This document shows, one piece after another, positions 23,253 to 34,185 of a DNA stretch of 34,185 bases. How positions within the stretch are numbered: position 1 is the stretch's first letter; each line of letters starts with the position of its first letter. A program made the translations under genes and the position numbers. The stretch spans positions 34,762 to 68,946 of the forward strand of contig CAZTOA010000001.1 of NCBI GenBank assembly GCA_964614975.1, written 5' to 3'. The notes under the pieces were generated by a model. It was given only the letters and a program-made list of their open reading frames with translations. It made no database searches and had not been told where the DNA came from. Origin of the DNA: an uncultured Gammaproteobacteria bacterium (GTDB lineage Bacteria; Patescibacteriota; Microgenomatia; UBA1406; HO2-37-13b).

Positions 23253-23630
23253 ATGGACTCCATAAAAGACGTTTTAAAGAACTTTAATCCAACAACAGAT
23301 AAGTACATCTCTCGTGAATATCAGTCATTTGGTGTTCATCTCGCAGAGAAGCTAGGGGATGAACAACATAAAAGTCTTTATATTAAGCTCGCAAAACAAT
23401 TACCGCGCCCGGTCTTATTGCAGGCGCTGCAATTTGTTGTCGATTCGGGCGCGCGCAGAAAGGGTGCTCTGTTCATGTGGAAGCTTAAAGACTTGGGTAT
23501 ATTTCCTGATATGTCAGCTGGAAAGAAGGGCGCGATGAAAACTTCAAAGAAAAAAGGCGCAGCTAGCGAAGAATCGGCTGCTGGTCAGGCGCAGCATTCT
23601 GACGGCACCCTAGACCTTTTCCAAAGTTAG
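23253..23630 (+). CDS. Hypothetical small protein with a basic Lys-rich C-terminal half
   Basis: 125-aa ORF, no family recognised. Its 3' end overlaps the convergent 23563..25677 gene by 68 nt. Confidence 0.4.
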   Translation: MDSIKDVLKNFNPTTDKYISREYQSFGVHLAEKLGDEQHKSLYIKLAKQLPRPVLLQALQFVVDSGARRKGALFMWKLKDLGIFPDMSAGKKGAMKTSKKKGAASEESAAGQAQHSDGTLDLFQS

Positions 23631-32208: not shown

Positions 32209-34185
32209 TGTGACTCGAGGTCTGGATTCACTACTGTACCCAGATCACCAATCATGAGGGAGACATCAAGGGAGTTCACAACCTTGTCACCATTTAGATC
32301 GCCTTTAAGCGCTTCACCTTCTTGGAAGTATTCATCATAAAGTGCGAAGAGATCAATTGTATTTATTATTCCGTCATTATTTATGTCTTTAGACTGTTGG
32401 AAGGCTAAGTATTGAGCTTCAGTTTGAATACACGAGTTAAGACTTTGTTGTACGCGGGCAAAGATTTCAGTGATACTTACATTTGCAGCAGTTGAGAATG
32501 CCCATGAGTCATCTGTGGTGAAGAGCTTTATGACTCTGAGAAGCTCTGCACTTACAAGCTCACTTGGTTCAGGGTTGCCCGCAAAGTTAGGATCTCCATA
32601 GCCAATACCTATTACAGTAGGCGGTACGATACCGGTACTTGCGGTATTTAATGTCTTGAGTCTTGTTCCTTCGGTTGCGATTTCACCTTCATATCCACCA
32701 GATCGTGGATTTCCAGGGTCGCTATTTGGAAGTCCATCGGTTAAGAAGACAACGATGACTTTTCTTGATTTATCTGTTCTAAAGTTATTTAAGAGATTTA
32801 CTGTTTCACGAATACCACATTCAATACAGGTTCCTTCTTGATAGGTGAGTTCGTTATTTGCTGCATTCTTAACAGTGTCGATATTGTTGGTGAGTGGGGT
32901 AACGATGCGTGTATTGCTACGAGCACTAAATTGTATGAGTGCAGCTCTATGATCGCCGCCACTATTTTTTATGTTTGTAAGGAAATCTTGAAGCTCAGTA
33001 AGCGCTGCGTCCTTTTTAAGCTTTCCTGTTGAGGTATCTCTTGTTTTTATCATTGACGTTGATGTATCCATGACAAAGACATAGTCAAAGTTTGCATTAC
33101 ATTTTTGCACGGTCCAACCATAAACGATATTTTGTCCACAGCCAACAGTAAGACCGTTGACCGTATCGCGAGGGTCGCGTTTTGTTAAGTCTACAGCGTT
33201 ATTTACGCGACCGGCTTGGAAAGCAGGCATATTACATGCTCCTATGAAGTTGCCGATAATATTATTTCTACAATACTTAATTTCGTTACCTTCTGGAACG
33301 ATTCTATAATCGGGTCTCTTTAGTGTCAGTTTTACAGAAGCTTCTTCTTTATTTGCATAACGCTCATTGGGGTAAGTAAAGGTAGGAGGAATAAACATGC
33401 CATTTCCTTTTTGTGTTGGATTTACTCCTGCTGGTATTGGCTGTGAACTGTCAACTCTTAAGTAAGCAAGTTGTGGTCCAAGTATGCCTCCGGCATAGAA
33501 TGGGAAAGTATTAATAATTCTCGACGCTTCGGAGAGATCCCCCGAATATAGGTTAAATCGTGACGCTGGTCCTTCGCCATAGCGGCCACCAGCAATTTGC
33601 TTGTTATTAATAGTTCCAAACTGCGTAAGCTCCTGAGCTGATAATGCGCGAGACATAAAGTTACCTTTTGCATCGCGAATACATTGTCCTTGAGCGTTAA
33701 ATTGTGTACATTCTTGAACGTAGACTAGGGAATTAAAGTCACAAGCATTAACTACTGGTGTTGTTGGTGTCGGTGTTCCTGATGTGGGACCCGTTGGCGT
33801 TGGCGTTCCTGAAAGAGTTCCCGTTGGCGTAGGTCCTGTCGGTGTTGGGCCGGTAGGAGTAGGCGTACTTGATAGTGTGCTTGTCGGAGTTGGCGTATAT
33901 ATAATTATTGTAAGTCGAATTGGGGTAGGCGTAGGTGTCTTAAGTGTAATTGTCACAAATCGATCTGTTGGTGTTGGGGTAGGTGTCTTAAGTGTAATTG
34001 TCACAAATCGATCTGTTGGTGTAAGGGAAGGACCCGTTGGTGTAGGACCAGTAGGTGTAGGGGTGCTTGTAAGACTTCCAGATGGCGTTGGGGTAACTTC
34101 TGGTCCACAACCTTTCTTTCCTTTTGCAAGTTGTGAATATCTTCGGGTTACTCCAGCTGTTTTTGCGTCAAATTCAAAATAGAAT
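32205..34185 (-). CDS. Surface protein P6 (5'-truncated by the window end): TP linkers, shared module, von Willebrand factor A domain, C-terminal dockerin-like module
   Basis: The reading frame stays open upstream of the track's GTG at 34004, all the way to 34185 (...YFEFDAKTAGVTRRYSQLAKGKKGCGPEVTPTPSGS...). vWA MIDAS DYVFVMDTSTSM plus VIVVFLTDGLPNS (about 32445-33089). Dockerin DINNDGIINTIDLFALYDEY + GDLNGDKVVNSLDVSLMIGDLG (32238-32387). ATGA overlap with P5. Confidence 0.8.
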   Translation of the reverse strand, partial: FYFEFDAKTAGVTRRYSQLAKGKKGCGPEVTPTPSGSLTSTPTPTGPTPTGPSLTPTDRFVTITLKTPTPTPTDRFVTITLKTPTPTPIRLTIIIYTPTPTSTLSSTPTPTGPTPTGPTPTGTLSGTPTPTGPTSGTPTPTTPVVNACDFNSLVYVQECTQFNAQGQCIRDAKGNFMSRALSAQELTQFGTINNKQIAGGRYGEGPASRFNLYSGDLSEASRIINTFPFYAGGILGPQLAYLRVDSSQPIPAGVNPTQKGNGMFIPPTFTYPNERYANKEEASVKLTLKRPDYRIVPEGNEIKYCRNNIIGNFIGACNMPAFQAGRVNNAVDLTKRDPRDTVNGLTVGCGQNIVYGWTVQKCNANFDYVFVMDTSTSMIKTRDTSTGKLKKDAALTELQDFLTNIKNSGGDHRAALIQFSARSNTRIVTPLTNNIDTVKNAANNELTYQEGTCIECGIRETVNLLNNFRTDKSRKVIVVFLTDGLPNSDPGNPRSGGYEGEIATEGTRLKTLNTASTGIVPPTVIGIGYGDPNFAGNPEPSELVSAELLRVIKLFTTDDSWAFSTAANVSITEIFARVQQSLNSCIQTEAQYLAFQQSKDINNDGIINTIDLFALYDEYFQEGEALKGDLNGDKVVNSLDVSLMIGDLGTVVNPDLESQ
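33931..34026 (-). repeat. Near-perfect 48-bp tandem duplication inside P6
   Basis: 33931-33974 is identical to 33979-34022 (44/44). The last 4 nt of each unit differ at 2 positions. It encodes TDRFVTITLKTPTPTP twice, followed by a degenerate third unit (IRLTIIIYTPTPTS). Confidence 0.85.

Follow-up and report, generated by a model that had tools for sequence, protein, structure and literature searches.

The 34,185-nt window analysed here (contig CAZTOA010000001.1 of assembly GCA_964614975.1, positions 34,762 to 68,946 of the forward strand) comes from an uncultured bacterium titled Gammaproteobacteria, with a GTDB lineage in the Patescibacteriota, Microgenomatia. At 23563-34185 it carries six co-directional minus-strand genes (open reading frame (ORF) listing and translation of the window), five of which encode proteins ending in a dockerin (G1, G3, G4, G5 and G6), and one a 200-aa membrane-anchored cohesin (Coh1). 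These genes are probably part of a conserved cell-envelope display system of Microgenomates (Patescibacteria, or candidate phyla radiation, CPR), made of cohesin-dockerin pairs and involving no cellulosome. Coordinates and scores of all features are collected in Table 1.

The 200-aa protein had been described, from the letters alone, as a transmembrane (TM) anchor plus a single cohesin module, and this was borne out by Pfam, by an AlphaFold2 (AF2) model and by Foldseek. Residues 82-191 of Coh1 match Pfam Cohesin (PF00963) at 39.2 bits, against a gathering cut-off of 24.1. The AF2 model, computed with an alignment of 11 homologues, has one helix at residues 20-43 and 12 strands over residues 70-198, with predicted local distance difference test (pLDDT) values mostly of 74-91, and a Kyte-Doolittle scan gave one strong TM segment, with a hydropathy peak of 3.04 within residues 15-50. 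In a Foldseek search of the PDB with this model, all 38 of the 38 top matches were cohesins (TM-score by target 0.72-0.74), the best being 6kgf_C (E 9.9e-10, TM-score by target 0.72), and the matches included dockerin-bound type I cohesins, the non-cellulosomal cohesin of Archaeoglobus fulgidus, and the single-cohesin anchors ScaE and ScaG. The protein is thus predicted to fold as a cohesin-type beta-sandwich, the point on which the earlier description had been staked.

Proteins of this type, with a TM helix and a single cohesin, form a large family, for which a HMMER search of representative sequences returned 412 representatives at E<=0.001 and 116 at E<=1e-10. Among the 150 best listed, most were 180-215 aa long and matched over nearly their full length; the family falls into more than 100 clusters at 50% identity, and those clusters that were looked up were unnamed or annotated 'hypothetical'. 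Scans of genomes and metagenomes with a Coh1 profile gave 3 and 2 loci, respectively, since the word patterns were clade-specific; the representative search reached wider. Named homologues came from Microgenomates bacterium OLB23, Roizmanbacteria and Woesebacteria.

All five proteins that had been read as ending in dockerin repeats were confirmed, with scores of 24.7-32.2 bits against the Dockerin_1 (PF00404) gathering score of 22.9 bits, and a clade-specific hidden Markov model (HMM), trained on 37 dockerins of relatives only, matched exactly 6 of the 330 window ORFs, namely the five cluster proteins (70.7-83.6 bits) and an RHS protein encoded elsewhere in the window. The C-terminal repeats therefore conform to both dockerin models. 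Each of the six modules holds two Ca-binding loops, 28-32 residues apart, and, as a check on chance, a Ca-loop regular expression applied to all six frames of the window gave 12 matches, 11 of them inside the six modules. In the AF2 model of G4, dockerin helices were found at residues 536-544 and 565-575. The dockerin of G1 is an outlier, with a Cys-rich first loop, an inter-loop spacing of 32 residues versus 28-29 elsewhere, and 22-33% identity to the other dockerins, which are 36-60% identical among themselves. Dockerins were more conserved than their own cargo in 15 of 15 comparisons with three closer relatives, and in four of five genes when compared with the distant locus L007 (loci of relatives are cited by such handles), the exception, G4, being a global alignment across a 903-aa orthologue. 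Every dockerin protein of the cluster has one N-terminal hydrophobic segment and no other (hydropathy scan).

Gene order was found to be preserved over protein identities from 92% to as low as about 35-45%, in contigs from Logan, JGI, ENA and NCBI, with relatives including OLB23 (L003/L011, LMZU01000016.1), a Rifle aquifer scaffold (L007) and a Woesebacteria metagenome-assembled genome (MAG; L016). The window ends inside G6, so that about 190 N-terminal residues are missing (the full-length orthologue, P0021, has 852 aa, at 85% identity), and in all relatives with longer contigs (L003/L011, L004/L009, L005, L007, L010, L014, L016) the cluster continues upstream of G6 with further cohesin genes, in the order given in Table 1. 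The nearest of these, L014, at 81-84% DNA identity to the window, covers the region from Coh3 to Coh1. The complete cluster of relatives spans about 17 kb and encodes 3-4 anchors and 6-7 docked proteins, with cohesin:dockerin counts of 4:6 in L009/L004 and 3:4 in the Woesebacteria locus, and no cohesin protein, here or in the relatives, has more than one cohesin module. The sequence-only reading had counted one cohesin anchor for six dockerins; this 6:1 ratio is not upheld, and is an artefact of the window edge, since the window ends inside G6 and the relatives' clusters run on with cohesins.

A sigma-70-type promoter with a 12/12 match lies in the gap between G3 and Coh1, and its -10 box ends 6 nt ahead of the Coh1 ATG. 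Both hexamers are invariant in 7 relatives, and flanking positions vary. On the plus strand of L009, three of the four promoter matches of at least 11/12 precede the Coh3, Coh2 and Coh1 start codons by 6-7 nt, and the fourth (11/12) lies inside the 3' part of G4; shuffled sequence gave 0.47 matches of at least 11/12 per 15 kb, counting both strands. The arrangement of promoter and TM-cohesin gene is retained in the distant relatives L007, L008 and L016. With the -10 box 6-7 nt before the ATG, a leaderless TM-cohesin mRNA is predicted. Immediately after each TM-cohesin gene comes a dockerin gene, and because each TM-cohesin gene also has its own conserved promoter, the cluster is best described as an array of cassettes. 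The window contains the end of the Coh2-led cassette (G6, G5, G4, G3) and the Coh1-G1 cassette in full.

The single operon with one anchor that had been proposed is accordingly replaced by this array. The six co-directional genes and the ATGA overlap at 32205-32208 were correctly read: the G5 start lies over the G6 stop (4-nt overlap), G5 and G4 are separated by 29 nt, G3 and Coh1 by 36 nt, and G1 begins 6 nt past the Coh1 stop. G4 and G3 overlap by 14-62 nt, according to which G3 start is taken; the ATG at 29661 (MSMKL), 5 nt after AAGG, is the likely one and gives an overlap of 20 nt.

Coh2 shares 50-54% identity with Coh3, and the VWA-dockerin proteins encoded after each share 45-48%, which fits duplication of a two-gene cassette. 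Coh1 is the outlier among the cohesins, with 30-35% identity to Coh2/3, and since the G1 dockerin is an outlier as well, a private pair is suggested, favouring partitioned pairings over one shared anchor. These patterns point to, and do not prove, at least two specificities, in which Coh1 would pair with G1, and Coh2/Coh3 with G3-G6, the second VWA protein and probably the RHS toxin.

A cluster in which one minimal cohesin anchor is shared by six dockerin proteins, including the RHS toxin, with competition producing a switchable display of adhesins, is what the window by itself would suggest, having one cohesin for five full dockerins and the RHS dockerin; the Coh2-led cassette of relatives, with one cohesin gene ahead of four dockerin genes, would also allow competition per cassette. 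This reading is nonetheless quite unlikely, given that 3-4 cohesins are found in the relatives' cluster, directly past the point at which the window ends, and that Coh1, the most divergent cohesin, shares a separate promoter-led unit with G1, whose dockerin is the most divergent. The same arrangement bears on whether docking takes place at all. Tails that are only Ca-binding stabilisers, next to small cohesin-like proteins acting independently, would be in line with the many non-cellulosomal dockerin-like modules in genomes without cohesins (surveys cited in PMC9012536); against this, cohesin and dockerin genes are interleaved in a conserved arrangement, cassette duplication kept pairs together, and dockerins are under stronger constraint than cargo, which makes the absence of docking very improbable.

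The three TM-cohesin paralogues (Coh1 residues 14-49, window 26140-26247; Coh2 and Coh3 in L009 and L014) have a pre-TM motif, F.TL.PQ.K, in common, and in a distant Coh1 orthologue (L008) identity is about 61% over the first 49 residues, versus about 37% overall (counted on the alignment). From this N-terminal conservation, the helix may do more than anchor. The N-termini of the cohesin and VWA proteins were also considered as type IV pilin-like signals, a reading that was rejected, with no G/FTLxE-type motif present and a ComGE match (E 0.17) that is noise.

Table 1. Features of the cohesin-dockerin cluster in the window, and gene order of the complete cluster in relatives (window coordinates unless a locus is named).
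Feature	Position	Strand	Description
G6	32205 to beyond 34185	-	VWA-dockerin protein; 5' end cut by window edge; 659 of ~852 aa present
VWA domain of G6	32715..33080	-	MIDAS DTSTS ... GT ... TDG; Pfam VWA_2 49.7, VWA 34.5 bits
Dockerin of G6	32229..32393	-	Two Ca-loop repeats, motifs 32352-32387 and 32265-32300; Pfam 30.6, clade HMM 83.6 bits
G5	31423-32208	-	261 aa, secreted; one beta module and dockerin
Dockerin of G5	31432..31590	-	Pfam 29.8, clade HMM 74.0 bits
G4	29642-31393	-	583 aa; signal peptide, beta module A, proline/threonine (PT) linker, beta modules B/C, dockerin
Dockerin of G4	29660..29824	-	Pfam 28.7, clade HMM 75.1 bits; nearly invariant across orthologues
G3	26323-29661	-	~1112-aa mosaic (longest ORF from 29703, 1126 aa): modules B/C, FN3-like segment, Cys-rich segments, GNP/GQP linker, dockerin
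Dockerin of G3	26329..26487	-	Pfam 32.2, clade HMM 70.8 bits
Sigma-70-type promoter	26293..26322	-	TTGACA-18-TATAAT, 12/12 match, G3/Coh1 gap
Coh1	25684-26286	-	200 aa; N-terminal TM helix, short variable linker, single cohesin module
Predicted TM helix of Coh1	26152..26229	-	~Residues 20-45; AF2 helix 20-43 and Kyte-Doolittle scan
Cohesin beta-sandwich of Coh1	25693..26079	-	~Residues 70-198; AF2 model and Foldseek
G1	23563-25677	-	704 aa; signal peptide, module A, further beta-rich Cys-containing regions, PT linker, divergent dockerin
Dockerin of G1	23614..23784	-	Outlier subtype; Pfam 24.7, clade HMM 70.7 bits
N-terminal dockerin of RHS protein (gene 9932-14911)	10136..10297	+	Residues 69-122; Pfam 16.5 bits, below cut-off
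Relatives, order 1: CohS			Signal-peptide cohesin, PT linker, LPETG, hydrophobic tail; Pfam 24.4-25.4 bits; in some relatives
Relatives, order 2: half-dockerin protein	L009 8855-9382; L010 1602-2135; L011 8824-9378		~177-aa secreted protein between LPETG cohesin and Coh3; C-terminal single Ca loop (LDINQDGCVLLNDL), half a dockerin; conserved
Relatives, order 3: Coh3			TM-cohesin, ~190 aa
Relatives, order 4: second VWA-dockerin protein			~1000 aa
Relatives, order 5: Coh2			TM-cohesin, 181-184 aa
Relatives, order 6			G6, G5, G4, G3, Coh1, G1

The cargo ahead of the dockerins was analysed by Pfam, by PDB sequence search, by BLASTP among the six proteins, and by structure prediction. BLASTP showed mosaics of common modules, with G1 residues 39-191 resembling G4 31-197, G3 168-533 resembling G4 132-510, and G5 114-204 matching G3 454-545. 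The VWA domain with an intact metal-ion-dependent adhesion site (MIDAS) that had been read in G6 holds up, as its MIDAS residues (DxSxS, T, D) align with the metal-site positions of a collagen-VI VWA domain. Of two further domain calls, both in G3, FN3 is not confirmed, with no Pfam fn3 match at E<=0.1 and as sole hint a weak match to Tencon (E 0.066 over 33 residues), and collagen is not upheld: the GXY run, of 10 triplets, scored 19.2 bits with Pfam against a cut-off of 27.2 and is not conserved, with none to 11 triplets in orthologues, so that it behaves as a variable linker. The PT-rich linkers of the cargo are 30-60 residues long. In G6, a 48-bp tandem repeat (33920-34044, minus strand; 2.2 copies, 92% match) encodes TDRFVTITLKTPTPTP units in a PT linker, and linker length and repeats differ in the orthologue P0021.

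No glycoside hydrolase, polysaccharide lyase, carbohydrate esterase, carbohydrate-binding module (CBM) or other enzyme domain was detected by Pfam in the five cargo proteins or their L005 orthologues, nor by the PDB sequence and fold searches, in agreement with the claim that the cargo is non-enzymatic. The PDB sequence search of G1 and G3 gave dockerin and low-complexity matches, and nothing further. The AF2 model of G4 is all-beta, of moderate confidence (pLDDT 61.6, with a domain at residues 235-375 at 80-90), and a fold search with it found only weak resemblance to generic Ig-like, pilin or FN3 folds, with no match at E<=0.001. A structure-based function for the cargo modules was sought in these matches and set aside as not specific.

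The enzyme search bears directly on a minimal cellulosome, that is, a polysaccharide-degrading enzyme complex, of which cohesin and type-I-like dockerin modules are the hallmark parts. Expressed cohesin- and dockerin-domain proteins of a Microgenomates MAG (Shapirobacterales) were interpreted in this way in a subsurface metaproteome study (10.1101/2021.08.21.457207). For the present cluster such a complex is extremely unlikely, as no glycoside hydrolase, lyase, esterase or CBM was detected in the five cargo proteins or orthologues, the cluster has no multi-cohesin scaffoldin, and the cargo folds are Ig-like or VWA. As to anchoring, where cellulosomes use S-layer homology (SLH) repeats or sortase signals, the window cohesin has a TM helix instead, and relatives add a cohesin with LPETG and a hydrophobic tail. 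The docking principle is the same as that of the cellulosome; the departure lies in enzymes and scaffoldin.

The conserved gene order can also be read structurally, with the cluster encoding a fixed envelope structure, such as a wall-spanning scaffold or the base of an appendage, whose cohesin-dockerin contacts would be assembly joints with a structural, non-adhesive role. Strict conservation of gene content and order over deep divergence, a constant linkage to a 7TM_transglut/ATP-grasp membrane cluster, cargo made of paralogous mosaics of the same beta modules, and a dockerin protein that is essential in Saccharibacteria (PMC10633639) are all compatible with such a structure. Three features make it unlikely: the VWA domain with MIDAS and the long, variable PT linkers are typical of adhesins, the cargo evolves faster than the docking modules, and the linker repeats differ between orthologues.

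The display system favoured here would work as follows. An N-terminal TM helix, a linker of about 25 residues and one cohesin would form a cytoplasmic membrane anchor with the cohesin outside, the TM-cohesins probably being translated from leaderless transcripts. Sec-exported all-beta or VWA proteins would be held non-covalently on these anchors by their C-terminal, two-repeat Ca-binding dockerins, and long PT linkers would allow outward reach of the N-terminal binding modules. G3-G6, and probably the RHS toxin, would most likely have their anchors just past the window end (Coh2/Coh3 in relatives), and Coh1 would most likely serve G1. The system most likely serves to attach the cell to a partner cell or a substrate, and the RHS toxin would be mounted on the same anchors; the earlier picture of an adhesome for an organism attached to other cells would be one interpretation of this layout.

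The RHS protein, whose shell had been counted as the sixth dockerin bearer, has a Pfam RHS_repeat match of 29.2 bits (cut-off 22). Its dockerin is real and belongs to the clade of the cluster dockerins (clade HMM 37.2 bits, E 3.8e-11), so that this part of the claim stands, with the qualification that the module is N-terminal and falls below the Pfam cut-off. It is 33-43% identical to the dockerins of G3-G6 (BLASTP) and groups with the majority at 34-41%; as it lies in the same clade as the dockerins of the adhesin-like proteins, anchors in common are implied. A more far-reaching version of the display system can be put forward tentatively, though we regard it as doubtful: a partner-cell attachment apparatus with a plug-and-socket envelope, in which leaderless sockets of at least two orthogonal specificities (Coh2/Coh3 with the G3-G6, VWA and RHS dockerins, and Coh1 with G1) would hold adhesins and RHS toxin on common membrane anchors, and attachment would be coupled to contact-dependent attack on the host.

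Several points weigh against the display system. Binding between these cohesins and dockerins is inferred, and pairing by cassette is deduced from adjacency and parallel divergence in the sequences. The upstream cohesins were seen in relatives (nearest L014), not in the window's own genome, where an exact look-up of G5, aimed at the sequence upstream of the window's genes, led to no more than a 2.2-kb contig. The topology of Coh1 is ambiguous by the positive-inside rule, and its short linker puts the cohesin near the membrane, so that surface display depends on cargo linkers crossing the wall. Finally, with a cargo model of modest quality and only generic Ig-like matches, 'non-enzymatic' here means that nothing was detected.

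Several observations were made on the surroundings of the cluster. The gene after the RHS gene (14914-16323, plus strand; 469 aa) resembles a stand-alone toxin module: it encodes a separate signal peptide and combines an HESIH (HExxH) motif with a weak PT-TG match and a motif like the RHS C-terminal core (YNAGARVYSPELGAFIQPD...NRYAYAENNPISNFDPSG). A trypsin-like gene comes next, at 16320-17573. At 20226-23204 (minus strand) lie a 7TM_transglut membrane protein and two ATP-grasp enzymes (ATPgrasp_ST fused to a RimB-like Zn_protease, and a RimK-like enzyme), which are always found just downstream of the cohesin-dockerin cluster (L001, L003, L007, L008, L016; down to about 35-45% identity); the linkage may be functional, for example in membrane peptide modification, or mere conserved synteny. 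A convergent 125-aa gene (23253-23630, plus strand) overlaps the 3' end of G1, has no Pfam match, and occupies the same position in all relatives; its product is cytoplasmic-looking and highly conserved (MDSIKDVLK.FNPT.D.YISREYQSFGVHLAEKL...KGALFMWKLK). Further away, Zn-ribbon, PhageMetallopep-domain and DUF2207 membrane proteins are encoded at 6833-9679, the first two of which recur near the cluster in the Woesebacteria locus L016, and at 804-2776 (minus strand) a sortase gene (804-1526) adjoins the gene of a PEGA-domain protein. An LPXTG scan of the window ORFs found no sortase substrate; the LPETG cohesin of relatives would be a natural one.

Among the relatives, L004 (CAZTFB010000003.1) and L005 (OZ246401.1) are titled 'uncultured Gammaproteobacteria', yet show full synteny of the Microgenomates-type cluster; one of the two is a 938-kb chromosome, and the Gammaproteobacteria label looks wrong. 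In the OLB23 assembly, several cluster genes, among them Coh1, CohS and the counterparts of G3, G4 and G6, are broken up into two or three ORFs each, which are probably assembly frameshift errors and not pseudogenes.

Outside Saccharibacteria, little is known of how the many uncultivated CPR/Patescibacteria attach to partner cells or substrates, and the cluster provides a testable list of hardware, consisting of minimal membrane cohesins, a fixed docked set of VWA/Ig-like proteins, and a dockerin-tagged RHS toxin. It also calls for caution, in that cohesin and dockerin matches in CPR genomes and metaproteomes need not signal cellulose degradation. Small orthogonal cohesin-dockerin pairs could serve as protein-display parts. 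The cohesin-dockerin principle as known is unchanged by the cluster; in the literature searched, no account was found of the array of cassettes, of the family of TM-cohesins or of their promoters.

Wall-associated YD/RHS toxins such as Bacillus subtilis WapA are comparable to the RHS protein. In polymorphic toxins, dockerin or cohesin occurs as a trafficking module in PT-TG architectures (PMC13483458), with which the window has in common an RHS/YD shell with a surface-tethering module and an adjoining signal-peptide PT-TG/RHS-CT protein; unlike in those toxins, the dockerin of the window RHS protein is N-terminal and lies in the clade of the adhesin-like proteins' dockerins. G6 resembles the VWA tip adhesins RrgA and PitA of Gram-positive sortase pili in being a secreted envelope protein of a monoderm-like cell that has both a VWA domain with intact MIDAS and Ig-like beta modules, and differs from them in that attachment would be by dockerin and not by sortase polymerisation; the fold matches, PitA (7w6b) among them, are weak (none at E<=0.001).

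Cohesin and dockerin modules outside cellulosomes are recorded in surveys (Peer et al. 2009, cited in PMC9012536) and in archaea of the ANME (anaerobic methanotrophic) groups, and it has been suggested that they attach functional proteins to the cell exterior, possibly for cell-cell interaction. Dockerin proteins have also been noted in Omnitrophota. Like the A. fulgidus cohesin (2xdh) and the toxin-complex cohesins of Clostridium perfringens (2jh2, 2vo8, 2w1n), the present proteins carry single cohesins and represent a use of cohesin-dockerin pairs outside plant cell-wall degradation. Whereas those cases were described as scattered genes or enzyme-enzyme links, the cluster described here is a conserved unit of about 17 kb with dedicated promoters and VWA/Ig-like cargo.

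Among the closest parallels are OlpA/OlpC of Clostridium thermocellum and ScaE and ScaG of Ruminococcus flavefaciens, in which one cohesin per envelope anchor holds a dockerin-bearing protein, as we infer for the TM-cohesins. The fold of Coh1 is that of the OlpA cohesin (3ul4), ScaE (2zf9) and ScaG (4n2o, 4wkz), at a Foldseek probability of 1.00, and the LPETG cohesin of relatives parallels the sortase-anchored ScaE. In R. flavefaciens, the ScaE-docked protein CttA is a non-enzymatic cellulose-binding protein, so that docked cargo can be a non-enzymatic binder. Unlike OlpA/OlpC and ScaE, Coh1 is anchored by an N-terminal TM helix and not by SLH repeats or a sortase signal, and, in contrast to cellulosome producers, the cluster combines cargo without detected enzymes or CBMs, and the lack of a multi-cohesin scaffoldin, with promoter-led cohesin-plus-dockerin cassettes in a reduced-genome CPR bacterium.

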